Below are positions 7,690 to 35,065 of a stretch of DNA of 64,000 bases, piece by piece. Position numbers and translations under genes: made by a program. Numbering within the stretch: position 1 is the stretch's first letter; every line of letters starts with the position of its first letter. Source of the DNA: an uncultured Gammaproteobacteria bacterium (GTDB lineage: Bacteria; Patescibacteriota; Patescibacteriia; UBA9934). The notes beneath the pieces were generated by a model, which was given only the letters and a program-made list of their open reading frames with translations, had not been told where the DNA came from and ran no database searches. The DNA lies in contig CAYPWV010000005.1 of the NCBI GenBank assembly GCA_964414795.1, positions 4,336 to 68,335 of the forward strand, read 5' to 3'.

Positions 7690-10062
7690 TTACTTTTTCA
7701 CGATATCTTCGTCCACATCTTCGTCGATTTCGTCGTCATGATCATTATCGCGAGACGCCATAAATGGCGTCTCTACGTCCTCATCCTGATCACCATCAGG
7801 GGGCGGAAGGTGTTCCGCCCCTGCGTCATCATTATCGTATTCTTCCATACTCGACCCATGCGGCGGCCAGGATGTCACCAGCACCTCACGGGGCTTTGCA
7901 CCATCCGAAGGACCGACAACTCCCATCTCTTCGAGAAGATCAAGGATACGCGCTGCTCGCGAATAGCCAATCTTCATGCGACGCTGTAGATACGACGTTG
8001 AAAGATGCCCTGCATCAATAGCAATTTGAATAGCCTCTTCAAGAAGCGGATCAGCATCATCTCCTCCCAAAGAAACGCCTCCACTATTGTCACCTTTTCC
8101 TCCTTCAATAATTTGATAATTATAATCCGGCGTACTTTCTTTTTTAAGAAAAGAAACGACGTTTTCAATCTCTTCTTCTGAAATAAAAGCGCCTTGAATA
8201 CGCTTGGGTTTACTCAGCTCAGCATTTGAAAGCAACATGTCACCACGACCAAGCAATTTATCCGCACCTGCAACGTCAAGAATCGTTTTCGAATCAACTT
8301 GTGAAGCAACCGCAAACGCCAAACGCGTAGGAATATTTGCCTTAATGGTTCCGGTAATAACATCCACCGACGGACGCTGCGTTGCAAGAATAAGATGGAT
8401 GCCCGCCGCACGCGCCATTTGCGCAATACGCACCACCGTTGCTTCAACATCGCGCTTGTTTTGAATCATTAAATCCGCCAACTCATCGATAATGATAATA
8501 ATGCGCGGCATCTTTTCGGAAGACTTTGCATTATAGGAATCAATATCTTTTGCATTAAACTTCGCCAAATAATCAAGACGTCGTTCCATTTCCCGCACAC
8601 CCCACTTAAGCGCATTCACCGCCTCTTCTGCTTTCACAATAGGCGGCACCAAAAGATGCGGAATACCCGCATACACGCCCAATTCTACGCGCTTCGGATC
8701 AACCATGATGAATTTCAAATCATCCGGACCGTTTTGATACAGAAGCGAAATGATCATGGTATTTAAACACACCGACTTTCCACTTCCCGTTGCACCTGCA
8801 ACGAGCATGTGCGGCGCACGCTCCACTTGCAAAAGGGGAACGCTTCCCGAAATATCACGCCCGAGCGGAACAGAATATTGCGACTTTCTCTTTTCAAAAT
8901 CTGGCGACTCAATAAGCTCACGCAGCGTAACGCGCGCCACCGTTTGGTTAGGCACTTCAACACCCACTAATGCCTTTCCTGGGATAGGCGCTTCAATACG
9001 AATAGGATGCGCAGCAAGCGCAAGAGCAAGATCGTTTTGCAAAGCAATAACCCGCGCAAGCTTCACTCCTTGTGCCGGACGAAATGCGTATTGCGTAACC
9101 GTTGGCCCCACACGCACTTCGCTCATTTCTACATCAATACCAAACTGTCGCAATGTTTTCGCGATAATTTCCTGATTGCGTGTAATATCTCCCGGCTTTG
9201 CTTCGCTCCGACGATTATCAAGAAGATCGAGTGGAATATCTACCGTGCGACGAGGTTCGCTTGAGGTAATAACCTGTTCCCCCTCCTTTTTGGCCGATTG
9301 CATCATTTGAAATACCTTTACAGCCTTTGCGGATTTTTCTTCTTCTGCGGATTCGTTGTCTCCGTCGTCATTATCCTTGTCGCGATCACGAGACGCCATG
9401 AATGGCGTCTCTACGTCTTCATCTTCGTTCTCATCTTGTTCTTTTTGGACGGATGCATTGGTCGATCCCTTTTTTGGCTTACCCTCTTCGTCGTAACGCA
9501 CAACTTTCGCAGTTGCGAGAGACTCTTTTGTGGAACGCAGCACATCAAATAACGGCGCAAGCATCACCCCGAGAGGAATATTCGTAATGCCGATAACGCC
9601 CACAACCATCGCAACAAGCGCTAAAAAGCCCGCAACTAAACCGCCAAATGCTCCCGCAACCCACGAACCAAACACAAGCCCAAACACTCCACCCGCATGA
9701 CGAAGCGCCTCATCAGTAACCGTTCGCACAAAGAGCACGTGCAAAAGACCGGTTACACCAAGCGTAATCGCCGTTGCCGACAACAACGTGCGCAGCGACA
9801 AAAAGCGACGATCGCCTAAAATCATGTCTGTTCCAATACCCAAAAGTAACAACGGAAAAACAATGCGCCCCATCCCTGCACCAGAAGCAAGGGCGTTATC
9901 AATACTATCTCCCGCAGAACCCGCAAGCCCCACCATCGCCAAAAGCATCACCACGCCAAGCGCAATAACAATCACCGCAAGAATACTAGAAAGAATCCCC
10001 CCACCTCCTTCATCAAAGGCATATTCCTCCTCTTCGTACTTTTTTGCTTTTCGCTTTGCCAT
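7690..10062 (-). CDS. ftsK: DNA translocase FtsK/SpoIIIE (790 aa)
   Basis: N-terminal TM helices, an acidic linker, an ATPase core (MLVAGATGSGKSVCLN Walker A, IIIIDELADLM Walker B) and a gamma winged helix (GYSRAARILDLLEEMGVVGP). An unusual ~60-aa acidic C-terminal extension follows the gamma domain. The linker and this tail each carry one copy of the palindromic element. Confidence 0.93.
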   Translation of the reverse strand: MAKRKAKKYEEEEYAFDEGGGGILSSILAVIVIALGVVMLLAMVGLAGSAGDSIDNALASGAGMGRIVFPLLLLGIGTDMILGDRRFLSLRTLLSATAITLGVTGLLHVLFVRTVTDEALRHAGGVFGLVFGSWVAGAFGGLVAGFLALVAMVVGVIGITNIPLGVMLAPLFDVLRSTKESLATAKVVRYDEEGKPKKGSTNASVQKEQDENEDEDVETPFMASRDRDKDNDDGDNESAEEEKSAKAVKVFQMMQSAKKEGEQVITSSEPRRTVDIPLDLLDNRRSEAKPGDITRNQEIIAKTLRQFGIDVEMSEVRVGPTVTQYAFRPAQGVKLARVIALQNDLALALAAHPIRIEAPIPGKALVGVEVPNQTVARVTLRELIESPDFEKRKSQYSVPLGRDISGSVPLLQVERAPHMLVAGATGSGKSVCLNTMIISLLYQNGPDDLKFIMVDPKRVELGVYAGIPHLLVPPIVKAEEAVNALKWGVREMERRLDYLAKFNAKDIDSYNAKSSEKMPRIIIIIDELADLMIQNKRDVEATVVRIAQMARAAGIHLILATQRPSVDVITGTIKANIPTRLAFAVASQVDSKTILDVAGADKLLGRGDMLLSNAELSKPKRIQGAFISEEEIENVVSFLKKESTPDYNYQIIEGGKGDNSGGVSLGGDDADPLLEEAIQIAIDAGHLSTSYLQRRMKIGYSRAARILDLLEEMGVVGPSDGAKPREVLVTSWPPHGSSMEEYDNDDAGAEHLPPPDGDQDEDVETPFMASRDNDHDDEIDEDVDEDIVKK
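7752..7776. repeat. Palindromic element copy A (GAGACGCCAT-aa-ATGGCGTCTC plus TAC), in-frame in the ftsK C-terminal tail encoding DEDVETPFMASRDND
   Basis: Perfect 10+2+10 palindrome read directly. The 25-nt core is shared with the copies at 9390, 28145 and 35041. Confidence 0.8.
9390..9414. repeat. Palindromic element copy B (GAGACGCCAT-ga-ATGGCGTCTC plus TAC), in-frame in the ftsK linker encoding EDVETPFMASRDRDK
   Basis: Same palindrome as copy A. It lies in the acidic linker between the TM region and the motor domain. Confidence 0.8.
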
Positions 10063-10112
10063 ATACGTTCAACATTGTAGCAAAGTATGAAAATCGCTAC
10101 ATATGAACCAAT

Positions 10113-13100
10113 TTAAGCGTAGACCGGTTCAAACTCCTTATAGACACGCACGGTCTCAAAGTAAATGAACTCGATAAGACGCTCAGTTTGTTTTTCTTGA
10201 AGAATGCCTCGTTGAATCAACATCAAACGAACATTCTGACGAATACGAGCTTTAATGGTTTCGTTATTTGTCCAATCGATTGCGAGGTCTCTTCGAATAC
10301 GTTTTGTGAGATCTTTTACGAATTCTTTAATATCAATCCCGGTATCTTTAAGGTCGGGATTCTTTTCTAGCGAATCGTAGAATGCGATTTCTTCAGGGGA
10401 CAGTCCAAGTGCCTGACTTTCTTCATCGAGCTTTTTGATTTCTCCAGCGATCTCAAGAAGACGTTTGATGATTTCCGCCGAGCTAATCACGTTGTTCTCG
10501 TATTTTTCAATGAGATCGGAAAGCAAAGTAAGCATCGTCTCATAGCGCGCCTTGTTCATTCGCATTCGAGTAACAATTTCCTTATCCAGTAATTTGCGAA
10601 CGGTATCAACGGCAAGGTTTTTGTACTCAGATTTGCGAATTTCTTCGGCAAACTTCTCATCGAAAATAGAGATACTCTTCGATTCGTTTGCAACAGCAAA
10701 TAAATCAATGACTTCTTCGGCCTGAACGGCATCATGAAGCAGCGAACGAATTGCACTTTCCGTTTCTTCAGGGAAAACTGCCTTTGGAATAACCGTTTGC
10801 TTCGCGATTCCTTCGCGAACCGCTTGAAAGAATTGCACATCACCAGCAATCTTCATGGCTGGTTCGCTTGGCATGACCAATGCATGTAACTTCGACAATT
10901 TTCCAACGGTACCGATGTACTGCATCTTTTGATCGTCGGAAAGAATTCCGTTCTTTGAAATTACCGCGTTAATACAAGACTGCAACAACCGAGACAATTC
11001 CGTACCCTTCAGTTTTTTCCAATCCGAATATGTGATGCTATCCAGAAACGCGATACTTTGTTTATGTAGCGCATTCATTTCTGAGATAATCTCATCAAGA
11101 GGAATCATCGCCTCTTTTTGAGTTCCGGAATCATATACTGCCAACGCTTTTTTGAGGTTGTCTGCGATACCGATGTAATCAACAATAAGTCCACCCGGTT
11201 TATCCTTAAACACCCGGTTGACACGGGCGATTGCCTGCATGAGTCCGTGGTTTTTAAGCGGCTTATCAAGATACATGGTGTGGAGGCACGGGACATCAAA
11301 ACCCGTTAGCCACATATCGCAAACAATCGCGATCTTGAGCGGATCGTTTATTTTCTTGAATCTTTTTTCCAGCTTCTTTACGTCACGCTCGGTTTGAATA
11401 TCTGACACATATTCATCGCTATCAGATATAACTACCGCGCATTCAGGGGCATTAGGTATCTTTTGAATCTCTTTGTACATTGCAACTGCGATTCTTCGAC
11501 TCATTGTCACGATCATCGCCTTTCCTTCAATAGGGCGATTCGTGAAGTGACGAACAACATCTTTTGCAACTTCCTCTATACGACTCTGCGCTCCAACAAT
11601 CTCTTCAAGTACTGCCCACTCTTTACGAGCTTTTGTTTTCTCATCAACGATAATTTCCCCAAGTAAGCTATCGAATTTTGAATCGATAAACTTATCCGCC
11701 ATGTGCAGTGGCACAAGACGCCCCTCGTAATAAATAGGAACCGTTGCACCGTCCCGTACCGCCTTACCAATGCGATACTCACTTACTATTGGCCCGAACA
11801 CCCTTACCGTGTCCTTATCGTCATTCGAGATAGGAGTTCCTGTAACGCCTAAAAAGCTCGCGTTTGGCAAAGCCTGTCGTACACTCCCAGCAAGACCACT
11901 ATATTGAGTACGGTGGGCTTCATCAGCAAGTACAATCACGTTCTCGCGATCCGTTAATACCGCATTCGCGTCTGGATCTTCCTTAAACTTTTGGATCGTA
12001 GTGAAAATAAGTTCGCTCTGTAAATGTCCGAGTCGATTCCTTAGGTCTGCGATACTCAACGCTCGTTTTGCAAGCGTTCCATATCCTGTCCGTTTAAACG
12101 TCTTAAAAAGCTGATCATCCAAATCTTCGCGATCGGTAAGAAAGACGTAGGCCGGGCCTTTCAATGCATCGATGCGATTGGTTTTGTTAACGTAGAAAAC
12201 CATGGAAAGTGATTTTCCGGATCCTTGCGTGTGCCAGAAAACACCGATCTTGTGATCCTGTTCGCCTCCCACGGCGCGTATCGTGCTTTCAACGGTCTCA
12301 TTGACTCCGTAATACTGATGATACAGACACATTTTCTTCGTGTAGGTAACTGCGTCTCCATCTCCATCTGCCTCGAAGACGATAAAGTTCCGAAGCACGT
12401 CCAAGAAACGATGCTTTTCGAATAAGCCAATTGCGAGTACTTCAAGTTGACTCGCATCTTTTGGCGCATCATCATCCGTCTTTACCCCTTTCCATGCCCC
12501 ATAACGCTCCCAGGAAGAGGAAATCGTTCCATGCTTCGCCGTATGAAGATCAGAAAGTCCGATAACTTGGTTATACAAGAAGAGCTTTGGAATCTCTTTT
12601 TTGTACAATTCGATATCTCGATACGCTTCGCCGATAGAAGCAGTATCACGCACTGCGCTTTTTAGCTCGAATACCGACAACGGCAATCCATTGATAAACA
12701 CCACTACATCAGGACGACGAAGAGAATCCGCTCCCTGTACAGTGAATTGATTTACAACGAGAAATTCATTTGCATCTGCATTCTCATAATCAATAAGTTT
12801 CACTAACTCGGCATTCTCGTTTCCATCAGTTCGCCAAGAATGCTTTTTTCCATCCGTAATCCAGGAAAACATTTCCTTATTACCAAGAACCAGATCCGCA
12901 TGATTATATTCCGCAATATCATCTGCAACTTCCTCGGCCTGCTCTGAAGGCAACTGCGGATTAAGGCGTCGAATAGCCCCAACCAACCGATCCTTCAATA
13001 CAACAGTTCGAAAATCGCCACGCTCAGCTTTTTGCTGACCGGGGTTAATGTCGGGGCCGTATACATATTCATAGCCCTGACCCTTGAGCCAATCTATAAG

Positions 13101-13163
13101 GGATTGCTCGGTTAAGTTTTGTTCGTTGAGAGAGTTCATAGATTGAATTCGGGATATCCACAT
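10113..13163 (-). CDS. hsdR: Type I restriction enzyme R subunit (1016 aa)
   Basis: N-terminal HsdR_N/nuclease region, SF2 helicase motifs (TQGSGKSLSMVF Walker A, VLADEAHRTQ DEAH box, GFDVPCL), and the typical C-terminal helical domain. Confidence 0.93.
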   Translation of the reverse strand: MWISRIQSMNSLNEQNLTEQSLIDWLKGQGYEYVYGPDINPGQQKAERGDFRTVVLKDRLVGAIRRLNPQLPSEQAEEVADDIAEYNHADLVLGNKEMFSWITDGKKHSWRTDGNENAELVKLIDYENADANEFLVVNQFTVQGADSLRRPDVVVFINGLPLSVFELKSAVRDTASIGEAYRDIELYKKEIPKLFLYNQVIGLSDLHTAKHGTISSSWERYGAWKGVKTDDDAPKDASQLEVLAIGLFEKHRFLDVLRNFIVFEADGDGDAVTYTKKMCLYHQYYGVNETVESTIRAVGGEQDHKIGVFWHTQGSGKSLSMVFYVNKTNRIDALKGPAYVFLTDREDLDDQLFKTFKRTGYGTLAKRALSIADLRNRLGHLQSELIFTTIQKFKEDPDANAVLTDRENVIVLADEAHRTQYSGLAGSVRQALPNASFLGVTGTPISNDDKDTVRVFGPIVSEYRIGKAVRDGATVPIYYEGRLVPLHMADKFIDSKFDSLLGEIIVDEKTKARKEWAVLEEIVGAQSRIEEVAKDVVRHFTNRPIEGKAMIVTMSRRIAVAMYKEIQKIPNAPECAVVISDSDEYVSDIQTERDVKKLEKRFKKINDPLKIAIVCDMWLTGFDVPCLHTMYLDKPLKNHGLMQAIARVNRVFKDKPGGLIVDYIGIADNLKKALAVYDSGTQKEAMIPLDEIISEMNALHKQSIAFLDSITYSDWKKLKGTELSRLLQSCINAVISKNGILSDDQKMQYIGTVGKLSKLHALVMPSEPAMKIAGDVQFFQAVREGIAKQTVIPKAVFPEETESAIRSLLHDAVQAEEVIDLFAVANESKSISIFDEKFAEEIRKSEYKNLAVDTVRKLLDKEIVTRMRMNKARYETMLTLLSDLIEKYENNVISSAEIIKRLLEIAGEIKKLDEESQALGLSPEEIAFYDSLEKNPDLKDTGIDIKEFVKDLTKRIRRDLAIDWTNNETIKARIRQNVRLMLIQRGILQEKQTERLIEFIYFETVRVYKEFEPVYA

Positions 13164-13261
13164 CTCCTTGATTTTTAGCCCTACTTAAGGTAGTTTTAAG
13201 GTAAAGGTTCCAACCCTCCGATACGAGCCCCTGGGCTCTTCCGAAAGGATAGGGGGGTTGG

Positions 13262-13987
13262 TCATTTTTTATCTACATATTTGTAAAATTCAGTTGTTCC
13301 TGATTTAAAAATTTCAAAGTGATTTTTAATGTGTGCCTTAATAATTTCGTAAGGCCGAATCTCATTCCTCTCATTTTTAATCGAAACTGCCCAACAGCAA
13401 TAATCAGCAAGTTGACAATTCAAATCAGAATTCGACGAGTGAGAAAAAATCTCAAATGGTACGGGGGGAAATGCTTCTTTCAAAAAATGTTTTAGTGTTT
13501 GCAGAACAATCTTTTTCTTGTCGCCAGTATAGAGAGAGCCCAGAACGACAACAATTTTATCAACTTTTTCGCGCTTTCCCTCAAATAAGTATTTCAACAA
13601 ACACTCACAACATTTCTTATAAAGACCGAATCCTGTTACTCGTTCAATTAATTTTTTTCGTTTATAATAGTTTTTTTTATATAAAGTTGGGTTGGCTTTA
13701 TTTTTTTGAGCTATCACTGAATGCACTTCAAAAGTTCCATTGAGTTGTTCGAACAAACGAAACACTCGATTTCTCACATCTTGTGAATCCTCGGTTGCGT
13801 GAAAAGATTCTTGATCCAAGCCTTGTACAAGTAATCGATAACGCAAGCGCAATAACTCTTCTCGCTTTATCACGGGATCAAAAGTGACAAAACCCGTAAG
13901 AACAAAAAACTTTGTCCCCTTTGGGGAGAAATCAAAATTTCCTGACTCATCCAAAAACACGAAAATTGTCTTTTGTGTGGACTCCAT
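13262..13987 (-). CDS. DUF3800 family protein (241 aa), embedded between hsdS and hsdR
   Basis: Its N-terminus, IFVFLDESGNFDF, is the [FY]xDESG signature I associate with DUF3800. A paralog lies at 16518-17171. The region is AT-rich relative to its neighbours. Confidence 0.7.
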   Translation of the reverse strand: MESTQKTIFVFLDESGNFDFSPKGTKFFVLTGFVTFDPVIKREELLRLRYRLLVQGLDQESFHATEDSQDVRNRVFRLFEQLNGTFEVHSVIAQKNKANPTLYKKNYYKRKKLIERVTGFGLYKKCCECLLKYLFEGKREKVDKIVVVLGSLYTGDKKKIVLQTLKHFLKEAFPPVPFEIFSHSSNSDLNCQLADYCCWAVSIKNERNEIRPYEIIKAHIKNHFEIFKSGTTEFYKYVDKK

Positions 13988-13991
13988 AGAA

Positions 13992-15143
13992 CTAAATCAA
14001 CTTTACTGATAACAAATCTCTTGATTGTTCCAAAAGCTCGACTTCTTTAATTAACCGTTTTATTTCTTCAAACAACGAAGCAACTCTTTTATGAAATAGG
14101 TTAATTATTGCACCGGTGGGTTCTAATACTTTGATATTTGAGAATATATTAGTATTCACATTCAACGTCGTTGATCCACCTGAACCGATAGCTTGTAAGT
14201 CACTCTTTTTACTTACTAAACTGAAGTACAGAAATTCCAGCAGACTCTTACCATTCGGGATGACGGTATTTATCTGTTGATTCGTCTGTGAGTCTTTCGT
14301 TGTAATTGAAACCAATCCAACGGTTGCAATACAACTCACACAAATCGATCCTTCTGGCACAAGTTTATTTTTTTGAGTACTGGCACCTGCTTCTGTGAGG
14401 CTGTCTTCAGTTTTAATGATAAATACCTGCCCATGCATGTCAGGAATTTTTATAAAAAATATATCACCACCAAAATAGCTTGGTTCAGACTTTGAAGGAG
14501 TTTTTCCACAAACTACATTTCCAAAATCACTGACTTTTCCAACTCGCCACCCCTCCGGAATCTCCCCCATCTCACTCTCAACCAATCCGACCTTCTCATG
14601 ACCAGGAAAGTTAAACTTCACAAACCACTCGTCAAAAATGGCTTGTGCAATTGCTTCAAGATTTTTGATAATGGAGTTGTTGTTTTGTATTTTTTCATCG
14701 TAAGAGCTCAAAATTGCCGCAATCTTTTTTTGATACTGGACATTGGGAATTTTTACTTGCATCCCGTGTATGTGATTACGGTTTAGGGTAGGAACTCCCG
14801 TCCCAGAATTGAATTTTTCAAAATCAAATGACGACAAAAAATAATAACAAAACTTTGGATCATTACCGTGAAAATCACTGACGTACAAGGTCGTGTTATG
14901 CGGCCAATAATCCTCCTCCACGTAAAAGATGCCCCCCAACGATCCACTTCGCCCTGTAAATACACCGGGTCCTCTAACCTTGAACTCATTGTGAAATTCT
15001 CTTCGACCATTCGAGAAGACAACCGGGTATTCACCTTTTTTAATCTCCGTCAGAGGCAGATCATAACCTCGATGAAAGGTGATCACTTCGCCAAGAGTTG
15101 TTTCTTTTCTCTCCTTTTTTATTTGTTCCAAAAATTTGTCCAT
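13992..15143 (-). CDS. hsdS: Type I restriction-modification specificity subunit
   Basis: Two target-recognition domains separated by and ending in conserved coiled-coil spacer regions (LEAIAQAIFDEWFVKF...; C-terminal LFEEIKRLIKEVELLEQSRDLL). It starts 5 nt after the stop of the upstream coiled-coil gene. Confidence 0.9.
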   Translation of the reverse strand: MDKFLEQIKKERKETTLGEVITFHRGYDLPLTEIKKGEYPVVFSNGRREFHNEFKVRGPGVFTGRSGSLGGIFYVEEDYWPHNTTLYVSDFHGNDPKFCYYFLSSFDFEKFNSGTGVPTLNRNHIHGMQVKIPNVQYQKKIAAILSSYDEKIQNNNSIIKNLEAIAQAIFDEWFVKFNFPGHEKVGLVESEMGEIPEGWRVGKVSDFGNVVCGKTPSKSEPSYFGGDIFFIKIPDMHGQVFIIKTEDSLTEAGASTQKNKLVPEGSICVSCIATVGLVSITTKDSQTNQQINTVIPNGKSLLEFLYFSLVSKKSDLQAIGSGGSTTLNVNTNIFSNIKVLEPTGAIINLFHKRVASLFEEIKRLIKEVELLEQSRDLLSVKLI

Positions 15144-15145
15144 AT

Positions 15146-16318
15146 TTATTCTTCTTCTGGCACCGGCAATTCCAACGCCTCAATCTTTTGCAACTGAACA
15201 ACTCCGCTAATATCCCCATAAATACCTATCGTATTTTTAATAACTTTTTGAATCTGTTTTTCTCGCTCCGTCCAAATCTTTTCATAAGCAAGACGCTCCT
15301 TTTGTAAAGAAATATTCATACCTTGAAACGCTTCGACAATCGCCTCAATGCGCTGACGGAATTCAACTCCTGAAAGATAGGAATACATAACTTCCATCTT
15401 TTCATTCTTGCCAACCGAACTGAACTTTTCACGAGCTACCGAAAGAAGTTCTTGCCGAAGAAGTGTGGCAACAGAAACGGCCAATTTTATATCGCAAACC
15501 CATACGCCATCTCGATCAGAGATTGCGTCTGCGCCCGTTGGAAGAACGGACGAGACGATAACCGCGAGATCCGCTTTTACCGTTCGTTGATCGTCCTTAA
15601 GTTTTTGAATCCAGCCTTCAGTCCAAACTTTTGTCTTTTTAGACTCCCAAATAATCTTTCCGCACTCAATACCATTCTTATTTTTAACAATCTGAATTAC
15701 ATCAGCTCCGTTAACTCCTTTGGGGACAAGGATGATATCGTCGTAAATAAATTCACTCTTGAGCGTTTCCTCAAGAATCATTTCTTGAACTTCGCCCTGC
15801 GTCTGCTGCGACCCTTGTTCTAACTTTCTAGCCAACTCATCTTTCGCTTTTGTGGCATCGGAGAGCTGCTTGTTTAACTGATCAATCTTAGCTTGCTGAG
15901 CCTCTGTGGCTCGCTTCGATGCGTCTTCTTCGATCTTCTTTCGCTCTTCATCCATCTGACGCTGTTTCTCTAGCTCAAAGCGGTCTTTCTCTTCTTTTAA
16001 CTGCACAGCCTGACGACGAAGTTCAAGCTCTTTTTCTCCTGACTCCTTAAGCTTTTGCTCCTTGTCCTTAAGTTGCTCCTCTAAAAACTTGCGCTCTGCT
16101 TCACCTTCTTTTGCTACGTCGGCTTTTACTTTTTTCGTAAGGTCAGCAGATAGTGCATCCAACTTCTTTGTATTCTCCCTTTCGAGGGATGCCTTAAGAA
16201 CAGCTTCTTTTTCTTCAAAGTCTTTCTTTAGTTTACTCTCAATCTGGTGCGTCAAAACATCATCGATAGAAATCGACTCATGACAGTTTGGACAGATAAT
16301 TTCGTTTGTTTTTGACAT
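15146..16318 (-). CDS. Zinc-ribbon / long coiled-coil / C-terminal PD-(D/E)xK-like protein (DUF2130-like, 390 aa)
   Basis: N-terminal CPNCHESISIDD zinc ribbon. About 170 aa of E/K-rich heptad coiled coil. C-terminal domain with a candidate nuclease motif (GADVIQIV...GKIIWESKKTK reads as D...ExK). It sits between a DUF3800 gene and hsdS. Confidence 0.6.
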   Translation of the reverse strand: MSKTNEIICPNCHESISIDDVLTHQIESKLKKDFEEKEAVLKASLERENTKKLDALSADLTKKVKADVAKEGEAERKFLEEQLKDKEQKLKESGEKELELRRQAVQLKEEKDRFELEKQRQMDEERKKIEEDASKRATEAQQAKIDQLNKQLSDATKAKDELARKLEQGSQQTQGEVQEMILEETLKSEFIYDDIILVPKGVNGADVIQIVKNKNGIECGKIIWESKKTKVWTEGWIQKLKDDQRTVKADLAVIVSSVLPTGADAISDRDGVWVCDIKLAVSVATLLRQELLSVAREKFSSVGKNEKMEVMYSYLSGVEFRQRIEAIVEAFQGMNISLQKERLAYEKIWTEREKQIQKVIKNTIGIYGDISGVVQLQKIEALELPVPEEE

Positions 16319-16517
16319 ATGGGGATAGATTGACTTTTTGTTCAGATTCTGGTATATTCTTTAGTAGAGGCATGCAATAATATCTTATCTGATGCTTCGG
16401 CGTTCCCTCGGAGTTTCTGGGGTTTCTCTCGGCAACGAGAGATGTAGCTGAAGATATTCATCACATAAGACGCTGCTTCTACCAAAGAAAGTCTGTATCA
16501 CAGGCTTTTTTTGTTTG

Positions 16518-17171
16518 TCATGTGAAAAACTCCTTCCCTTGGTCAAGAAAATTATTCTTGAGAATTTTGTAGCATTCTTCACCAAGTGGGGATTTTTCCA
16601 GATAACGATTCAAGGCTCCGGAGATCCAGTCTACAATCTGCATGTTTGCATTCGATGTAGAATCAACCATTTCCACTTGTACCACGGTTCCTGGAGGACA
16701 AAGCGTAAGAATTCGTGCTCGAATTGATTGTTCAAATTCTTTTTTCGTAACGCCATTTAAAGAGCGCTGGTCGCAAAATACATGAATCTCTTTTTCGTCA
16801 TTAGGAAAATATTGTTCGATAATTTGGGTAATAATATTGGTATAAAGTTTACCGCTCTCAATTTTTCCTTTTTTCCGAAAATTACTCGGGATATTATTTC
16901 GCAGTAAATAACCAAACCGAATACGCACGTCTAATTTTGCAATATATTTCAATGTCTTTATACGAAGATCGTCGGTGATGCCAGATTGCGACCATTTGAT
17001 CTCAGCTTGCGATCGCATCTTTCTCGGAAACCGATCACGCCACGCTCGGAAAGCTTTTGCAGTTCGACGCTGATCACCAACCGTAAAAGATCCAATCACG
17101 AAATACTCCTCATGGTTATGCTTTGTAAAATTGCCACTCTCATCCAAAAAGAGAAACATATTAGAATCCAA
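16518..17171 (-). CDS. DUF3800 family protein, second paralog (217 aa), embedded immediately downstream of hsdM
   Basis: N-terminus MFLFLDESGNFTKH carries the same DESG signature. It overlaps the hsdM stop by 11 nt. Confidence 0.7.
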   Translation of the reverse strand: MDSNMFLFLDESGNFTKHNHEEYFVIGSFTVGDQRRTAKAFRAWRDRFPRKMRSQAEIKWSQSGITDDLRIKTLKYIAKLDVRIRFGYLLRNNIPSNFRKKGKIESGKLYTNIITQIIEQYFPNDEKEIHVFCDQRSLNGVTKKEFEQSIRARILTLCPPGTVVQVEMVDSTSNANMQIVDWISGALNRYLEKSPLGEECYKILKNNFLDQGKEFFT

Positions 17172-18957: not shown

Positions 18958-18971
18958 AGGTGTACTTTTGA

Positions 18972-18985
18972 TTTACACGTGTAAA
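18972..18985. promoter_or_regulatory. Perfect 14-bp palindrome TTTACACGTGTAAA overlapping the predicted hsdM -10/+1; a second half-site TTTACACA lies 27 bp away
   Basis: Seen in sequence. On the minus strand, TTGACA sits 17 nt upstream of TACTTT, and the palindrome lies immediately downstream. This is the position expected for an operator bound by the HsdM N-terminal HTH (inference). Confidence 0.4.
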
Positions 18986-19053
18986 GTACTATACGGAGTT
19001 CATTTTGTCAACTTTACACATGATAAGGTGCCTTTATTCCCAACGGAACAAAA

Positions 19054-19087
19054 AACTCACTCCATTTCTGAAGTGAGTTTTTTGGAA
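19054..19087. terminator. Bidirectional rho-independent terminator (A-run, AACTCACT...AGTGAGTT hairpin, T-run) between hsdM and efp
   Basis: Hairpin flanked by an A-run and a T-run, just downstream of the efp stop on the minus strand. Confidence 0.55.
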
Positions 19088-19092
19088 AAAAC

Positions 19093-19659: not shown

Positions 19660-19664
19660 ATAGG

Positions 19665-20746: not shown

Positions 20747-20862
20747 AAAATTCCAGAAAAGAATACCAGCTCAAAAGTAAAAAGGCTATTTCGCTTAACA
20801 AAATAGAATCTATTCTTTACTCAAATTGGAATTTTTATCTTGAGATAAGTAAACTATTCCTC

Positions 20863-21821: not shown

Positions 21822-21826
21822 AGTTC

Positions 21827-21980: not shown

Positions 21981-21982
21981 CT

Positions 21983-22201: not shown

Positions 22202-22219
22202 AGAAGAAGGAAAAAGGGA

Positions 22220-22669: not shown

Positions 22670-22684
22670 AAGAGAAGATGATGA

Positions 22685-23158: not shown

Positions 23159-23306
23159 AGGCTGATATATTCGGCATTTTGCCGAACTTGGCTCCCCTAA
23201 TGTAGTAGGGAAACGACCCAATAGAATTGGATCACGGACAAGAATAAGTGTGCGAAGGGTAGCGAAATTGTCGATTTGCGTCAAGCAGTGTAGAGTAGGA
23301 GTCATT

Positions 23307-24509: not shown

Positions 24510-24555
24510 TCTTCTCGTCAAACTAAAAAATGGACTTCCTCAGTCCATTTTTTTC

Positions 24556-25632: not shown

Positions 25633-25689
25633 AGATGGAAGGGAGTGTACCGGATGGAAGAGAAGGTGACAATAAAATAACACAAAAGT

Positions 25690-28002: not shown

Positions 28003-28009
28003 AGGAAAA

Positions 28010-31000
28010 TTAGATCGGATTTGTATCTACGTTCTCGTCCTGTACAACGTCATTATTAGACGCGTCATCGGTCACGGGGGCGGATATGGAATCCGCACCT
28101 ACGGACGCGTTATCATTTTCATCAATCTCCGCCATGTCCTCGTCAGGAGACGCTATGAATGGCGTCTCTACATCCTCATCTGCATTCGCATCTTCGGACG
28201 CATCGTCGGTCACAGGGGCGGGTATGGAATATGCCCCTACAGATGCATCCTCGTTCACGTCATTTTCTACATCCTCGTTCATATCTAGCACTGGCGTAGC
28301 ATCATCAATCGTGGAAGATTCTACCGGAACCATGTCATGACGATACGCAAGCACAAGCCAATCAACAGAGACACCTTCGCTGCCATTCGCATCACGAATG
28401 ATAAACCCTGCGTTTGAACGATCGGTAACATACAGCTGACCCGTAAGACCATTTGGCGTAACAAGAACGCGATAGGAACTTTCGGGAGAAATGATGTCGT
28501 TATACTCTGGGCTTACATTTTCAAAAGAAACACGAGCCATGCCGTTATGCAATGTTGATGTACCAGAAAGTTGCACCATCGTTTCAGGAGATGTGGTTGG
28601 ATAGGTTGAAACGGACGTGTTTTGCAGCGAATGCACAACCTGTGTGAGCTGACCATCCGTAACAATGTCTCCATTCTCTTTAATTTGCCACGTGCCAATA
28701 CCCGAAAGCGTTCCAACATTTATAATATTGCCTCCATTCATGCTGAGGAGATTGGTAATGTTCAACGTTTCAATATCTTGTGAGTTAATGGCAATCGATG
28801 ACGTATTCGATGCTCCCGAAGTTCCTTGGTATTGCGGACGAACAAACGCTGCAATACTTCCCTCCCCAAAACTCCACGACGCAAGTGCGTAGCCAATAAT
28901 CTGTCCGGGTTCCGTCGCTTTCATAGCAAATCCTGCACGGGAAGACGTGGTGAGTGCATCGCCAGACTCGATCGCACCGTTTTCATCGCTTACCTTCAAA
29001 GAAACCCGACCCGAAACGGCAACGGGATATTCACCCAGAGCACTTCCCGCAATAAATCCCGACTGCGATGCAACAACACCGGCAATACGTGCACTATACG
29101 TTTCACCCGACGAACGCACCACTCCCGAGCCGTCGGCCGCAAACTCCACCACATCTCCCGGAACCAACGCATCAGCAGAGGCAAATGACTCGGAGTAGTT
29201 TGAAGCATTTGATGACCAGCCCGCAGCGTTCGTACGCATATACCCCGCACCCGTACTGTCATAATACACATATGCACCGTACTGGAGCACACCACGATCC
29301 GAAGGATAAAAATTGCCCGCGATCGCTAAATCACCCGTGCTGCCAAACGTCATCACGTCAACATTATCGTTATTCGTAAGACTTAAATGAGAAGCATCAG
29401 TTCCTTCAACAACATTGCGCAGGCTTAAAGAAACATCCTGCGCAAAAGATCCATTCCACGCAGATCCCACAAACGCTAAACCAGCCGAATCAAGAAGTTG
29501 ATGCGTTGCCGTTGCATCCGCACCTCCAAGCGCAATGCCATTCGTAAATGCGGTTGCTTCACCCGTGCTCGTCAGCATCTCTCCCCCGTACCACATTGGC
29601 TGCACCAAAACCTTAATAGTTCCCGCTCCACTAGCGAGCGGTTCAAGCGCACGACCAATAATGTAGGTTCCCCCCGGTGCCTTCGCGCCATATCCCGCAC
29701 GAACGGAGGAAGTAGTAATAGCATCGCCTATAGCAATAGATCCTGCATCTGTAGAAACAAACGTTTCAATCTGCCCCACAAGTCCCACAAGCGCATAATT
29801 TGGATCATTTTCTAAACTTGCCTCAGCGCCGGAATACCCATTTCCAATAAAACCCGGATTTGTAGAAACAACTCCCAACACATTCGTATCTCCCGCAGTA
29901 CAAGACTCTACTGCATACGATTGTTCTTCATCCCAACAAACAATGGTATATCCCGCAATGTGCTCAGATGCGGGAAAATATTCCGCGTAGTCAGCACCTG
30001 CGGCGTTCCATGCGCCGTCGGCAAAAGCATCACCGTCATTTTCAAAACGAAACTCGGTATCACGCACACCACCGCTATTATCTGCATCCGATCGAATAAG
30101 AATAACCTCATCATTGTTCGCATTTTCATTCACATCGATGACAAGTGCTTGTGCGGTAGCTGTGGTTGTCGCATTTGCTACTTGATTTTGCGTAATGTAT
30201 ACCGCCGTAGAATCACCGCCTCCCGAGTTTGAAACATTAAGTGCTTTTCCTGTTGAACCTCCCGATGTACGACCTTGCTGAATATCCACTAAAGTTCCCG
30301 TAAAATCTGTAGCGATCGAATCCGTACGCATGATTTGGAATCCCTTTCCCGAAGTTAACGAATTTGTATTCAGTGAAAATGCCGTGGTTGTTGTTGCAGC
30401 CGAAGTAAAAGTAAATGCATCAGTTCCCGTAGTATCGCCCGCACTAAGACTTCCATTAAACGTTGCAGCTCCCGCAGTCGTTACCGACCATGCAGTTCCC
30501 GAATTAATTGCAACTCCCGTACTTGCATGCGTATTACCGAGCGTAATCGTATCTGCCGACGTACTGTTTGTTGCAATATTAATGGTATTTCCTCTATCAG
30601 AATCAACACCTCCAATATCAATGGTAGTTGTTCCCGAAGTATCATCAAAAAGATTTACGGAAGATGTTGTTGAAGAAAATACTCCCGTCGTTGACGAAAG
30701 TGAACCCGCGGCAACCGTATCTCCCTCCGCATCAACACGAAAACGAGCCGAACCGCCATTTGCAATACCAAAAATAGTATCATTTGCCGCAAGATCGGCT
30801 GTTGCCGGATTAATATACACAGATCCTGCGTCTATTCCAGAACTTGCGGGGTTACCGGTAAAAACCACATTACCTGATGAATTAAGAGCCACAATACCTG
30901 CGGCAGTTGATCCGTTATCTTCTGTAGCAAAGCCATTCAAAAGAAGGGCGTTAATTGCAAAAGGCGCAGAAACAATTTGCTTACGTGGACTCAGTGTTTC

Positions 31001-31408
31001 GCCGCCAATAGTTATTTGAAGATACACACTTGCGTTCTCTCCAAAAACGCTATCACTAATAGCGGCATACGCAGGACTTGCAGCCGTATCACCCAAATTT
31101 TCGCTAAAAAGCCCGTCGGTAAGCGTAACCGTACGAGCCGTTGCTGACGCACAGGTCGCCGAAGAGTTCGACCAAAGACACGTACCGCCCGAAGAAGCGG
31201 TGTAAAATTGAAAGATCATGCTCGCTGATGTATCAGAAACCGGCGCACGATTACTATTCAATAACCGACCCTGGTAAGAGATGATACTTACCGGAAGCGC
31301 TGCGGAAACAGGAGTTGCAAAAAGAAAAAGACTTACACTGTAAATAAACAAAAACAAGGCGGATGATATCCTCCAAAGGCTTTTTTTCTGTATACCGGCT
31401 CTATTCAT
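28010..31408 (-). CDS. Very large secreted Gly/Thr/Ser-rich repetitive surface protein (~1130 aa) with an acidic C-terminal tail
   Basis: Signal peptide (FLFIYSVSLFLFATPVSA). A long beta-rich, low-charge repetitive body resembling an adhesin or fibre. The acidic tail contains palindromic element copy C. Start trimmed to the internal Met; the track ORF runs to 31450. Confidence 0.75.
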   Translation of the reverse strand: MNRAGIQKKSLWRISSALFLFIYSVSLFLFATPVSAALPVSIISYQGRLLNSNRAPVSDTSASMIFQFYTASSGGTCLWSNSSATCASATARTVTLTDGLFSENLGDTAASPAYAAISDSVFGENASVYLQITIGGETLSPRKQIVSAPFAINALLLNGFATEDNGSTAAGIVALNSSGNVVFTGNPASSGIDAGSVYINPATADLAANDTIFGIANGGSARFRVDAEGDTVAAGSLSSTTGVFSSTTSSVNLFDDTSGTTTIDIGGVDSDRGNTINIATNSTSADTITLGNTHASTGVAINSGTAWSVTTAGAATFNGSLSAGDTTGTDAFTFTSAATTTTAFSLNTNSLTSGKGFQIMRTDSIATDFTGTLVDIQQGRTSGGSTGKALNVSNSGGGDSTAVYITQNQVANATTTATAQALVIDVNENANNDEVILIRSDADNSGGVRDTEFRFENDGDAFADGAWNAAGADYAEYFPASEHIAGYTIVCWDEEQSYAVESCTAGDTNVLGVVSTNPGFIGNGYSGAEASLENDPNYALVGLVGQIETFVSTDAGSIAIGDAITTSSVRAGYGAKAPGGTYIIGRALEPLASGAGTIKVLVQPMWYGGEMLTSTGEATAFTNGIALGGADATATHQLLDSAGLAFVGSAWNGSFAQDVSLSLRNVVEGTDASHLSLTNNDNVDVMTFGSTGDLAIAGNFYPSDRGVLQYGAYVYYDSTGAGYMRTNAAGWSSNASNYSESFASADALVPGDVVEFAADGSGVVRSSGETYSARIAGVVASQSGFIAGSALGEYPVAVSGRVSLKVSDENGAIESGDALTTSSRAGFAMKATEPGQIIGYALASWSFGEGSIAAFVRPQYQGTSGASNTSSIAINSQDIETLNITNLLSMNGGNIINVGTLSGIGTWQIKENGDIVTDGQLTQVVHSLQNTSVSTYPTTSPETMVQLSGTSTLHNGMARVSFENVSPEYNDIISPESSYRVLVTPNGLTGQLYVTDRSNAGFIIRDANGSEGVSVDWLVLAYRHDMVPVESSTIDDATPVLDMNEDVENDVNEDASVGAYSIPAPVTDDASEDANADEDVETPFIASPDEDMAEIDENDNASVGADSISAPVTDDASNNDVVQDENVDTNPI
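28145..28169. repeat. Palindromic element copy C (GAGACGCtAT-ga-ATGGCGTCTC, one mismatch), in-frame encoding DEDVETPFIASPDED; flanked by ~45-nt imperfect direct repeats at 28055-28105 and 28195-28245
   Basis: Read directly. Confidence 0.75.
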
Positions 31409-33983
31409 GTGATGTACCGTCCTGACGACGAAGAGGAAGGTTGACACCAAAAAGGCTCACTTCCTTCCTATTTTTAAAGTCAACAGGCTTAATCGTTGCA
31501 TCAAGAAATCCGTCTTTTGCAAACGTTACATAATACTCATTCGGACCAAGAGCAAAAACATAACGACCTTGCGCATCAGAAAGTATTGATTCAACAAGCT
31601 TATTATACTTCGGTTCGAACAATCGAATAACCACATTGCCCACAGGATGACGCGACTTTTCATCATATACAATACCCCACGTATCTGCGCGTTTACGATG
31701 CGCGATTTTCCACGTAAGTGCATAGAGTGAAACTTGCGCGCAAAGCATGACAAACGTAAAAATACTTGCTGATACTACAAAAACTCCCAACGAAATAACT
31801 ACACTCAACGGAGACAGTACAAGTGCAATACGCCGCTTTGTGCGCTGCCAGCGAAGCGCTTTCGCAGGAACAGGCGAACCTTCCGGATCCAAAGGAATCG
31901 TAACCGCAAGAGGTTCTGCATCTCTTGTTACTTCAATTTCCTGTCCTGCATACACATCGGCATATATTCCATCTTCCCGTACATTCTGCAAATACAAACT
32001 CGGAAAAACAAATCCCTGCTTAATAACCTGCAGACGATATCGCCCTTCCTGAGAAATACGCAACAAAAACTCACCTCGATCATTGGTAACAACCGTTTTG
32101 ATAAGACGACTCGTTGCCACGTCATACGCACGGACGATAACAAGATCAAGAGGAACCTTGGTAACGCTGTTATAAACGATGCCGAGCTTTTTATGCTTCT
32201 TACGAGCAAAAAAGAGCAAAGGCTGTGATAACAACGAAGAAAGAAGAAGCAAAAGCTGACTTCCACCCACCGCAATCGTTGCCGCAACCGCCGCAATCAC
32301 TGCGGGTGGCGTGGCGATAACTACCGCTTGCTCCGGCGTCACGTCTTGAAAAGCATCCGCAACGCTCTCAAAAAATGCTGAAACTTGCGAAGTCAACAAG
32401 CGCTCATCAGACGGATTTTCCTCTCCCGTTCCAGAGCTAGATTCATCAGAAAAAACCACATCAGGATCTCGGATAAAAACAATCCGCGGAGCAAGAATGC
32501 TATTCGTAACCGTTATCATTGCTTCTGTGGTTTGATATCCTTCTTTTTCTCCCCGAAGAAGATACGTGCCGTTGGGCACATACCATGCAAATCCTGAACC
32601 CGTACTGTCGCTCATTTCTTGCGCTACCTGACCGTAGAGTTCCGCATTCCAAGCCGATCCATCCGATTGAAGCACGGTAATGGTCGCATTTTCTATTCCT
32701 ACAGATTCTCCCTCCCGCACCTCGTACGCAAAACCCGAAGGAACTACATCAAAAAGCAACGGCGACGTTGCAACAACTCCCGAGCTATCTTCAACAACCA
32801 CACTTCCCAATCCGTTTGCAGAACCTACAGAAATTGTTCCCGTCCAAATATCCGTATCCGTCTCAACAAACGGATATCGATCATCACCTATCTCTACATA
32901 CACCGCCGTAGGATTTCCTTCGTCAAACAAAATCTCTACTTCCGCAAGAGAATCTGCAAGAACAGAAACGGTATTATCGACAATAGGAAGCGAGATTTCC
33001 TCCGCAGAAACGCCTACGTCATAAGAAAGCACATCGCCTCCCGATCCACTCGCTGTATCATCACTGCCACTTGTTTCATCAACTCCATCACTACTAGATG
33101 ACGACGGAACTTCTCCCGACGTGTCTGAACCACTCGTATCCGTGCCCGCCGTATCATCAGAAGACGTTTCTCCATCATCCGTATCAGCTGGATCTGTATC
33201 CGTTCCCGGAATTTCTCCGTCGTCAGGTGGAACGTCCGGATCTTCACCAGGAACATCGTCCGGATCTTCATCAGGAGCATCCGGATCGGGTGTTTCTGGG
33301 TCAGGGTCAGGCTCAGGATCGGGTTCGGGATCGGAATCGCCGGTATCTCCCGTATCGCCTCCCGACGAACCACCTCCGCCGCCACCACCACCTCCTCCGC
33401 CACCCGTTGTCGCATCCGGCACATCAACCGAAACTCCCGACGCTGAACTCGTAACAATAGGAACGATCACCGAGCCTCCACTACCAAACGTTCCACCAAA
33501 TGCAATAAAATAACTTCCTACGCCCGAAGGATTGGTCACTTGATGTGTACTCACTCCCGATGATGATGCATTCAATCCCATCTCAATAACAATTACCGAA
33601 TTTGCTGCAATAGTTCCCCCGTCTCCTGTACACATTTCAAACGTTGCAACAGAACCAGAAAAAGAAATTCCCATCTGCTCACTCCCTGCACACGTAGCTG
33701 CGGTGGTGAGATCAACACCATCATCAGCAACGTCAACATCATCTTCGGCAAATGACGTAAGCGCATATCCGGAAGGAAACGTAATCGTCATCGTTTCTCC
33801 TTCTGCCCACGAAGCAGATCCATTGAGTGTAAGAAAAAACTTATAGTTTGCAGATGCACTGGCAAGATGCGTTGTAGCAGTTGCGTAAAGAGACGAAAGT
33901 TCAACCGCAAACACAAAATGCGTCGGCAACACCAGAAGCGACAAAAGCAAACATGCAAGTATCCGAAAAGAGAAACGTTTCAC
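31401..33983 (-). CDS. Large secreted/membrane protein (860 aa): signal peptide, poly-Gly (12x) and Asp/Pro low-complexity region, TM segments, two carboxypeptidase-regulatory-like (prealbumin-fold) domains
   Basis: MKRFSFRILACLLLSLLVLP signal peptide. GGGGGGGGGGGG and DPEPDPEPDPDP tracts. Two GIVYD...GRY...V.K.GF modules typical of CarboxypepD_reg/Cna-B-like folds. Confidence 0.75.
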   Translation of the reverse strand: MKRFSFRILACLLLSLLVLPTHFVFAVELSSLYATATTHLASASANYKFFLTLNGSASWAEGETMTITFPSGYALTSFAEDDVDVADDGVDLTTAATCAGSEQMGISFSGSVATFEMCTGDGGTIAANSVIVIEMGLNASSSGVSTHQVTNPSGVGSYFIAFGGTFGSGGSVIVPIVTSSASGVSVDVPDATTGGGGGGGGGGGGSSGGDTGDTGDSDPEPDPEPDPDPETPDPDAPDEDPDDVPGEDPDVPPDDGEIPGTDTDPADTDDGETSSDDTAGTDTSGSDTSGEVPSSSSSDGVDETSGSDDTASGSGGDVLSYDVGVSAEEISLPIVDNTVSVLADSLAEVEILFDEGNPTAVYVEIGDDRYPFVETDTDIWTGTISVGSANGLGSVVVEDSSGVVATSPLLFDVVPSGFAYEVREGESVGIENATITVLQSDGSAWNAELYGQVAQEMSDSTGSGFAWYVPNGTYLLRGEKEGYQTTEAMITVTNSILAPRIVFIRDPDVVFSDESSSGTGEENPSDERLLTSQVSAFFESVADAFQDVTPEQAVVIATPPAVIAAVAATIAVGGSQLLLLLSSLLSQPLLFFARKKHKKLGIVYNSVTKVPLDLVIVRAYDVATSRLIKTVVTNDRGEFLLRISQEGRYRLQVIKQGFVFPSLYLQNVREDGIYADVYAGQEIEVTRDAEPLAVTIPLDPEGSPVPAKALRWQRTKRRIALVLSPLSVVISLGVFVVSASIFTFVMLCAQVSLYALTWKIAHRKRADTWGIVYDEKSRHPVGNVVIRLFEPKYNKLVESILSDAQGRYVFALGPNEYYVTFAKDGFLDATIKPVDFKNRKEVSLFGVNLPLRRQDGTSHE

Positions 33984-34846: not shown

Positions 34847-35040
34847 ACGTCAAGCTTTAGTAAGATTTTCGTCATGTCGAACTCTCTATCATCATCTCCT
34901 GTCATCCCGACGTTAGGAGGGATCTCCCACACTTGTCACGATCACCCCTCATTCTCTCACATTTGTAAACTGATACTTGAACTTTGGATCTTATTTGCCT
35001 TTTGATGCTTGGACTTTGGACTTTTTCTTCAATCCTTGTC

Positions 35041-35065
35041 ACAGACGCCATAAATGGCGTCTCTA
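35041..35065. repeat. Palindromic element copy D (cAGACGCCAT-aa-ATGGCGTCTC), intergenic between two surface-protein genes
   Basis: Same core as the other copies, outside any confident CDS. Confidence 0.75.

Follow-up and report, generated by a model that had tools for sequence, protein, structure and literature searches.

The 64-kb stretch of contig CAYPWV010000005.1 analysed here (the window), from an uncultured member of the Patescibacteria, carries on its minus strand the gene ftsK and, further along, a 1146-aa open reading frame (ORF) whose putative surface protein has an N-terminal hydrophobic segment and gave no match in a Pfam search. Both genes contain a short palindrome, termed REP1 here from its likeness to repetitive extragenic palindromes (REPs): copies A and B lie in ftsK, copy C lies in the 1146-aa ORF, and copy D lies between genes, some 41 nt past the stop codon of ORF 35108-36100(-) (Table 1). 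As a preliminary description of this DNA had reported, three of the four copies are in frame and give VETPF(M/I)AS. Copies A and B both translate as DVETPFMASRD, B at about residues 216-226 of FtsK in the linker between the membrane and alpha domains, and A in the C-terminal tail, 19 codons ahead of the stop; copy C translates as DVETPFIASPD in the acidic C-terminal tail of its protein, 44 codons ahead of the stop. All of the coding copies sit in acidic (Asp/Glu-rich), disordered and repetitive segments.

On the minus strand the unit common to all four copies is GTAG-AGACGCCAT-TY-ATGGCGTCT-C. It comprises a GTAG foot directly 5' of the stem in four of four copies, a 9-bp stem and a TY loop, that is, a 22-bp palindrome with a 9-10-bp stem and a length of 25 nt with the foot, and every copy has the same orientation. 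A search of the window with GAGACGCCATNNATGGCGTCTC, allowing up to three mismatches, returned exactly four matches, and none was found in 100 dinucleotide shuffles, so the four-fold repeat of the preliminary description stands. The palindrome had been called perfect; this holds for copies A and B (7752-7773 and 9390-9411), whereas copy C (28147-28168) has one stem mismatch and copy D (35042-35063) one terminal mismatch, and the coordinates first given for C and D were off by 1-2 nt, those for A and B being right. The plus-strand string CGTCTCTAC (minus strand, GTAGAGACG) is likewise present on all four copies, against 0.21 occurrences expected. Folded as single-stranded DNA, the copies reach -7 to -11 kcal/mol with z of -4 to -6 (copy A, -11 kcal/mol, z = -5.7). 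The copies thus show two of the features by which REPs are defined, a short palindrome with a stable stem-loop and a conserved GT[AG]G at the 5' foot of the hairpin, and similarity between their flanks stops sharply at the element borders. No Rfam 15 family was found at the copies at gathering score, the window yielding only three tRNAs and a DUF3800-V RNA.

Table 1. REP1 copies, their host genes and the copies of a second REP family (REP2) in the window
Feature	Position	Strand	Sequence and form	Context
REP1 copy A	7752..7776	-	GTAGAGACGCCATTTATGGCGTCTC: GTAG foot, 9-bp stem AGACGCCAT, TT loop	FtsK tail
REP1 copy B	9390..9414	-	GTAGAGACGCCATTCATGGCGTCTC	in frame, acidic FtsK linker
REP1 copy C	28147..28171	-	GTAGAGACGCCATTCATAGCGTCTC, one stem mismatch	in frame, tail of 1146-aa ORF
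REP1 copy D	35042..35066	-	GTAGAGACGCCATTTATGGCGTCTG	intergenic
ftsK	7690..10062	-		Pfam FtsK_alpha, FtsK_SpoIIIE, FtsK_gamma; hosts REP1 copies A and B and one REP2
1146-aa ORF	28010..31450	-		putative surface protein
REP2	7801..7820	-	GGGCGGAA-cacc-TTCCGCCC, foot degenerate	FtsK tail, 27 nt from copy A; encodes AGAEHLPPP
REP2	28078..28102	-	GTAG-GTGCGGAT-tccat-ATCCGCCC	encodes VGADSISAP; core of one direct repeat
REP2, decayed	28216..28240	-	GTAGGGGCATATTCCATACCCGCCC	encodes VGAYSIPAP; core of the other direct repeat
REP2	45157..45180	+	GTAC-GGGCGGAA-catc-TTCCGCCC	intergenic, adjoins tRNA gene
REP2	51423..51447	+	GTAG-GGGCGGGTT-taa-AACCCGCC	ORF 51000-52151(+), in frame, encodes VGAGLKPA
REP2	53934..53958	+	GTAG-GGGCGGAT-ttcat-ATCCGCCC	in frame in Mg-chelatase/ComM-like ORF 53367-54917(+), aa 190, linker between ChlI and AAA domains
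REP2	61596..61619	+	GTAG-GGGCGGAAA-at-TTTCCGCCC	rnpA-dnaA spacer, ~360 nt upstream of dnaA

The homologues of the window FtsK, which are labelled Patescibacteria or Uhrbacteria, indicate how the ftsK copies arose. Among the 120 best homologues, only two contain one of the element's three possible translations, namely the window protein itself (P0001, two copies) and P0002, an FtsK 87% identical to it that has the linker copy only. The peptide is absent from P0003-P0016, which are 82-89% identical, as from all the more distant proteins (P0003-P0120), and the tail copy is unique to the window FtsK. The same picture is seen in DNA: one relative (L121) carries AACGTAGAGACGCCATTCATGGCGTCTTCTGAC at the orthologous linker site, so that the L121/P0002 copy is the orthologue of copy B, and has no tail copy, while another (L122) has unrelated acidic codons at the linker site and neither the linker nor the tail copy. 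The ftsK copies are accordingly lineage-specific insertions of recent date. The window FtsK is on record from both NCBI and Logan; the same insertions were found in independent assemblies, and on that ground we rejected an assembly artefact. The preliminary description had looked to an alignment of ftsK orthologues for a clean indel; presence and absence are seen, but the FtsK flanks are diverged low-complexity DNA in which a clean empty site is not definable, and the insertion borders and target motif are accordingly not fixed. The case that it gave as fatal to a DNA element, orthologues bearing the same peptide in divergent codons, was not encountered, 118 of the 120 FtsK homologues having no such peptide.

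A metagenome scan for the variant of this lineage gave 10 loci, mostly from one Hainich H41 population, and fragments of a related Hainich H41 metagenome-assembled genome (MAG) hold at least five REP1 sites. Most REP1 copies of the lineage are at or near gene 3' ends and in the same sense orientation: in the relative, a ClpB-like ORF of locus L078 has the TAG of the GTAG foot as its stop codon, at locus L058 REP1 follows a stop by about 48 nt, and in L127/L132 a copy lies four codons ahead of the stop. With copies A, C and D also placed close to gene ends, and given that known REPs can stabilise mRNA (PMC3733652), one might suppose that the element is an RNA-level 3'-end hairpin kept for termination or mRNA protection rather than spread by a transposase. 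However, no T-run follows the hairpin at any of the four window copies, a terminator scan of the window did not call copy D, which does not have the GC-rich hairpin plus T-run of an intrinsic terminator, and copy B is in the middle of its gene; moreover, such a function accounts neither for the identity of the element across phyla nor for its linkage to transposase genes, both described below. We consider this explanation very unlikely, and a role in RNA could be at most secondary and exapted.

The palindrome is by no means confined to this lineage. A scan of genomes, one per species, for the exact 22-mer found at least 147 copies in at least 119 stretches, counted among the matches listed. 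None of these 119 loci was matched when the window was compared with them by BLAST. These stretches belong to more than 10 phyla, with Bacteroidota contributing most and with Planctomycetales, Omnitrophota, Shapirobacteria/Patescibacteria, Deltaproteobacteria, Dadabacteria, Melainabacteria, Ignavibacteria, Chloroflexota, Spirochaetia and others also represented. A foot stands on one or both sides in 134 of the 147 listed copies: 83 are flanked by GTA..TAC on both sides (a "double foot"), which makes them the 28-bp palindrome GTAGAGACGCCAT-NN-ATGGCGTCTCTAC, and 51 have GTA(G) on one side only, like the copies in the window. A scan of viral contigs returned no match and so gave no sign of a phage origin. 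Variants in the same loci retain a complementary stem: the one pair that varies is C-G 165 times, G-C six times, A-T six times and T.G once. Elsewhere the same DNA is intergenic or is read as RDAMHGVST, RDAINGVST or RRHxWRL; the intragenic copies of other phyla occur in both orientations and also as inverted pairs, and their hosts include an MmeI-type enzyme, type I and IIG restriction-modification (R-M) subunits, CCA/poly(A) polymerase and the C-terminal sorting domains of the type IX secretion system (T9SS).

About 18 of the 119 listed loci hold an ORF resembling a REP-associated tyrosine transposase (RAYT, also TnpA_REP), an enzyme of the HUH type, with palindromes flanking it and in frame inside it. 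The first RAYT query was an E. coli RayT sequence, and its matches were then independently confirmed by Pfam, NCBIfam and the source annotations. These ORFs carry the motifs MPNHFHGII (the HuH motif, as NHFH), WQxRFHDHIIR and YIxNNP. Their sole NCBIfam match is NF047646 (REP_Tyr_transpos, "REP-associated tyrosine transposase"), at E = 1.5e-16, below the equivalog cut-off; they match Pfam Y1_Tnp weakly, many homologues have a precomputed PF01797 assignment, and the JGI label of the proteins is "REP element-mobilizing transposase RayT". A clear example is a further locus (L133), whose RAYT has GTAGAGACGC...GCGTCTCTAC REPs (GTAGAGACGCCCAATTTGGGCGTCTCTAC and GTAGAGACGCGATTAATCGCGTCTCTAC) on either side and one more within the gene. 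Both this locus and a Planctomycetales-type one (L006) pair the REP with a RAYT of the cognate type, and the REPs of the latter share the TT loop with the window REP1. When an insertion-free RAYT was used as query, 80 of the 120 best homologues carried a REP-derived peptide, in nearly all cases RDAMH[R/C/G]VST just after the HuH motif, at about residues 95-145. In the loci with DNA, the R/C/G codon's first base forms a stem pair with the Ala codon's third base, which is synonymous, and this covariation indicates selection on the nucleic-acid hairpin and not on the peptide.

The same observations bear on the idea that VETPF(M/I)AS is a selected short linear peptide, such as a docking or processing site, which arose convergently in FtsK and the surface protein. 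Its appeal is that frame and peptide are identical in all three coding copies and that these always lie in acidic disordered segments. Yet the peptide is missing from 118 of 120 FtsK homologues, 82-89% identical ones included, the copies are nucleotide-identical at synonymous sites and one of them is intergenic, while other genomes read the same DNA in other frames and the stem covaries at a synonymous site. We regard a selected peptide as effectively refuted already, with next to no probability left to it. The view of the preliminary description, that this is a DNA-level element, a mobile palindrome found in permissive disordered segments, is borne out by the close FtsK orthologues that do without it, by the other frames in use elsewhere and by the intergenic copy.

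The preliminary description took the sequence to be an unrecognised one, and in this it was mistaken. In Quentin et al. 2018 (PMC6006769), TnpA_REP subclass 2.4 (RAYT group 4 of Bertels et al.) is defined by the protein motifs NH[IFV]H, WQ and YIxNNP, and two types of REP are described for it, the "double foot" type (5' GT[AG]G ... C[TC]AC 3') and a canonical long type with three bottom G-C pairs; as a striking trait peculiar to the subclass the authors report in-frame REPs within the tnpA_REP genes, in a variable insertion between HuH and Y. The proteins associated with our palindrome in other phyla have the motifs of subclass 2.4 and likewise contain in-frame REPs between HuH and Y. The supplementary catalogue of that study lists GTAGAGACGCAATTTATTGCGTCT from Cytophaga hutchinsonii and GTAGAGACGCGATTTATCGCGTCT from Flavobacterium branchiophilum, from both of which the window REP1 differs by one compensated base pair, as well as GTAGAGACGCAATGCATTGCGTCTCTAC and GTAGGGGCGGAATCCATTTCCGCCC, both from Chlorobium chlorochromatii; the exact variant GAGACGCCAT is not in the catalogue. 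Shared with the subclass 2.4 REPs are the GTAG foot, a perfect stem of 8-13 bp, a loop of 2-4 nt and the core GTAGAGACGC...GCGTCT(CTAC). On the other hand, the window REP1 copies are single-foot singletons, all sense-oriented and mostly intragenic, and their Patescibacteria/CPR (candidate phyla radiation) host belongs to a group absent from that study.

We therefore consider it very likely that the four copies are GTAG-class REPs of the family that co-occurs with HUH transposases of TnpA_REP subclass 2.4 / RAYT group 4. By analogy with these systems, we infer that these copies owe their mobility to a RAYT, one present now or in the past in this Patescibacteria genome. Following the literature on IS200/IS605 and TnpA_REP, the element would fold as a hairpin on single-stranded DNA, and the cognate RAYT would recognise the GTAG foot and stem, then cleave and rejoin the strand, whereby copies would spread to new sites. 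Copies that entered coding sequence would survive only in a stop-free frame and a permissive segment, which here would be the acidic linker of FtsK and the tails of FtsK and the surface protein. With regard to frame, G|TAG is always closed for a footed copy, and GTA-GAG-ACG gives VETPFMAS and, reversed, TAA or TGA with TT or TC loops. This much of the earlier claim that coding sequence tolerates only one orientation is correct, but the third frame (..DAINGVST..), the one mostly used in RAYT genes elsewhere, is open in both orientations.

Several further arrangements of the REP in other phyla deserve mention. Two MAGs labelled "uncultured Planctomycetales" (L006, L014, L024, L037, L057, L086 and L112) carry the single-foot TT-loop variant of the window, GTAGAGACGCCATTTATGGCGTCTC, at high density; a RAYT in these MAGs is flanked by a REP of the GTAGAGACGCCATTTATGGCGTCTC type, and a protein of more than 1700 aa has two in-frame VETPFMASH copies. 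This REP/RAYT pair is the closest to the window element among those found. A Saprospiraceae MAG (L104, 1928-2048) has four REPs head-to-tail, repeating every 33 nt (GAGACGCCATGCATGGCGTCTC, then GGGCCTGGTTG as an 11-nt spacer), inside an open frame that repeats ..RPETPCMASPT... In L029, L034, L035 (MAG JAZDFC01) and L068 the same REP lies 56-61 codons from the end of several different proteins, in the T9SS C-terminal domain (Por_Secre_tail), which suggests that a REP-containing cassette of this domain has spread, or been homogenised, among paralogues within single genomes. In several Bacteroidota MAGs (L011, L042, L044, L054, L090, L092, L113 and L118) the REP is inside a longer conserved unit, GGGTGAATTCCT-GTAGAGACGCCATTAATGGCGTCTCTAC-A(A/T)ATTGGAT, which may be a composite element or a MITE-like one, built around the REP.

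The window also contains a second such family, REP2, with about seven copies, most of them in frame inside ORFs and encoding VGAxxxxAP, so that the 64 kb hold four REP1 and about seven REP2 copies. REP2 has the form GT[AG]G-GGGCGG(A/G)(A/T)-loop-...CCGCCC, of the type with "three G-C at the bottom", also written GTAG-GGGCGGAA..TTCCGCCC; three copies agree fully in their stem, GGGCGGAA/TTCCGCCC (chance expectation 0.23), and the others are variant or decayed. Judging by sequence, REP2 is of the same subclass 2.4 as REP1, its stem matching the catalogued Chlorobium chlorochromatii REP GTAGGGGCGGAATCCATTTCCGCCC. Its copy in the FtsK tail gives a peptide that is unique to the window FtsK. In a loose census, 26 sites had GT[AG]G ahead of a hairpin of any kind, where shuffles had about 17; this is too noisy to read further, and only REP1 and REP2 stand out. 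In FtsK, the surface protein and the ComM-like protein, the VETPFMAS and VGAxxxxAP segments are REP-derived insertions and not functional motifs.

REP2 also explains the surroundings of copy C, for which the preliminary description had noted imperfect direct repeats of about 45 nt. The repeats are real, but they are longer, 71 nt at 75% identity and 138 nt apart, and they are themselves two REP2 hairpin copies, so that the tail of the 1146-aa protein carries a REP2-REP1-REP2 cluster. This matters for the proposal that gene conversion or replication slippage between acidic low-complexity segments copied a 25-nt patch, with no mobile machinery involved. All coding copies are indeed in Asp/Glu-rich repetitive DNA, and copy C is within a 138-nt duplicated region; yet that apparent duplication consists of two copies of another REP family, similarity among the REP1 copies ends at the element borders, one copy is intergenic, and the element recurs across many phyla in contexts that are unrelated. 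Such copying is, to our mind, highly improbable as the origin of REP1.

The REP2 copy upstream of dnaA falls inside a spacer that may hold a replication origin. The order rnpA-yidD (minus strand) followed by dnaA-dnaN (plus strand), seen across window positions 61225-63382 and in L136, suggests that oriC is in the spacer at about 61.2-62.0 kb. With an origin there, the plus-strand genes at 47-61 kb would be head-on to replication, and the plus-strand GC skew is negative.

Two further explanations were prompted by the neighbourhood of ftsK. One is that the palindrome is an operator or chromosome-organisation site for a dimeric DNA-binding protein, for example the helix-turn-helix (HTH) protein encoded at 6970-7665 beside ftsK. 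A perfect two-fold symmetric site of 10+10 bp would suit such a protein, an HTH_25/HTH_19 gene does adjoin ftsK, and E. coli REPs recruit host proteins such as IHF (PMC3479197). Against this, more than 10 phyla share the identical sequence, which there tracks RAYT genes and no HTH gene, three of the four sites lie deep in ORFs and away from promoters, and the conserved GTAG flank is asymmetric in the window lineage. There is in our estimation very little chance that an operator function accounts for the four copies.

The other concerns restriction. The preliminary description had pointed to the pair CGTCTC/GAGACG in the palindrome as a type IIS-like site, and one could imagine that this pair is an R-M target or is tied to the adjacent type I R-M island. 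A hexamer of the BsmBI/Esp3I type is present in each arm, and a type I R-M system adjoins ftsK. Nevertheless, the two hexamers together number 34 in the window against about 30 expected under a maximal-order Markov model, being neither avoided nor enriched outside the repeats, and in a relative that has the linker copy the R-M island is missing there. The recognition sites of type I R-M systems are, in addition, bipartite and asymmetric. We give this explanation practically no weight, and the idea of a relevant type IIS site has no support. The island itself, at about 10113-19000 between efp and ftsK, comprises hsdR (10113-13163), hsdS, hsdM, two DUF3800 genes and a DUF2130 gene, with the Rfam DUF3800-V RNA at 16366-16480. 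It is missing in two close relatives, L121 having efp directly beside ftsK and L122 having a few small unrelated genes between them, and it looks like a variable defence island.

As for the assignment of REP1 to the subclass 2.4 family and its spread by a RAYT, a number of points weigh against it. In contrast to the subclass 2.4 systems, a RAYT was not found in the DNA examined for this lineage: there is no RAYT-like ORF in the 64-kb window, in L136 (a few kb beyond it) or in about 40 kb of Hainich H41 MAG loci, and a profile built from 14 RAYT-like ORFs gave noise only against the window, L120-L132 and L136. No RAYT homologue that was retrieved with a name bears a Patescibacteria label; a search with the L006 RAYT protein gave 56 homologues, the named ones being Melainabacteria, Omnitrophota or Delongbacteria. 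The RAYT loci on large contigs (L133 and L134) were considered as candidates for the RAYT of the lineage and rejected, as they are not from CPR genomes. Furthermore, REPs are mainly extragenic and paired, whereas three of the four REP1 and most REP2 copies are intragenic and the window contains no inverted REP pairs of the REPIN kind or of the bacterial interspersed mosaic element (BIME) kind; intragenic REPs are, however, a documented minority behaviour (PMC3733652, PMC6006769). The GTAG is on the sense strand in every REP1 and REP2 copy with a clear gene context, a rule that covers minus-strand genes at 7-36 kb as well as plus-strand genes at 51-62 kb. Over the full window the plus strand keeps a negative GC skew, and this constant skew together with the sense-foot rule is not what a simple lagging-strand-template model predicts; the bias may be lineage-specific or a small-number effect. 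The REP copy counts for the source genome are those of the 64-kb window. Lastly, transposition of REPs in vivo is undemonstrated even in E. coli, the literature consulted reporting only in-vitro processing of REPs, and Corneloup 2021 calls the mechanisms of REP dissemination "poorly understood".

The habits of the element do have precedents. Di Nocera, De Gregorio & Rocco 2013 (PMC3733652) describe a superfamily of GTAG-tagged REPs that are often located just downstream of genes, in which the TAG of the foot can serve as a stop codon, and report REPs lying wholly in ORFs that code for known proteins, in many cases genes of replication and repair (DNA metabolism), where they are tolerated at protein termini or linkers. 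The window copies share with that superfamily the GTAG-tagged short stem-loop, the siting at gene 3' ends and the occurrence in ORFs; the survey of about 80 species has no CPR member and no ftsK example, and the string GTAGAGACG was not found in its text or examined supplements. With the REPs and BIMEs of E. coli and their TnpA_REP (RayT/YafM, subclass 2.2), a monomeric HUH Y1 enzyme that recognises the REP on single-stranded DNA and co-evolves with it, the shared feature is the GTAG 5' of the hairpin. The E. coli REPs are imperfect, with a bulge, extragenic and arranged in BIMEs, as compared to perfect stems, no inverted pairs and mostly intragenic positions in the window, and the E. coli motifs DHLH/WE/YIHYNP contrast with NH[IFV]H/WQ/YIxNNP in the REP1-associated proteins. 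The comparison with Rickettsia palindromic elements (RPEs) drawn in the preliminary description was apt, as PMC3733652 treats RPE-4 and RPE-6 as CGTC-tagged rather than GTAG-tagged REPs. In both cases palindromes have inserted in frame into functional genes and add a short peptide in permissive regions; no dedicated transposase is known for RPEs, and the classical RPE-1 is much longer (about 100-150 bp) and restricted to Rickettsia, so that the 25-nt element of a Patescibacteria host is not an RPE-1. The literature search returned no paper linking REPs or RAYTs to Patescibacteria or CPR.

The class of element is therefore a known one, GTAG REPs of RAYT group 4 / TnpA_REP subclass 2.4, whose in-frame intragenic habit is already described, and what is new is the host phylum Patescibacteria, the exact sequence variant and the clear examples of presence and absence in ftsK. 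It is tempting to go further and to speculate, although we think this rather unlikely, that the REPs of this streamlined CPR lineage, in two subclass 2.4 families, behave unlike classical REPs in being mostly intragenic, single and, wherever the gene context is clear and whatever the GC skew, sense-footed, with clusters in the 3' tails and interdomain linkers of core genes (ftsK, a comM-like gene, a surface protein), through transcription-coupled insertion into the non-template strand or through persistence or spread with no resident RAYT (in trans or by transfer), in which case they would supply reduced genomes with new disordered peptides for linkers and tails. For the present the finding adds Patescibacteria to the known hosts of the subclass 2.4 REP family and is mainly a point of annotation, in that REP-derived segments mark recent genome dynamics in a CPR lineage, with clean cases of presence and absence in an essential gene among relatives of 85-89% identity. 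If the sense-strand, intragenic and RAYT-less pattern held throughout the genome, it would be relevant to the spread and persistence of REPs in minimal genomes that have hardly any intergenic space, and to the creation of new protein linkers by small repeats.

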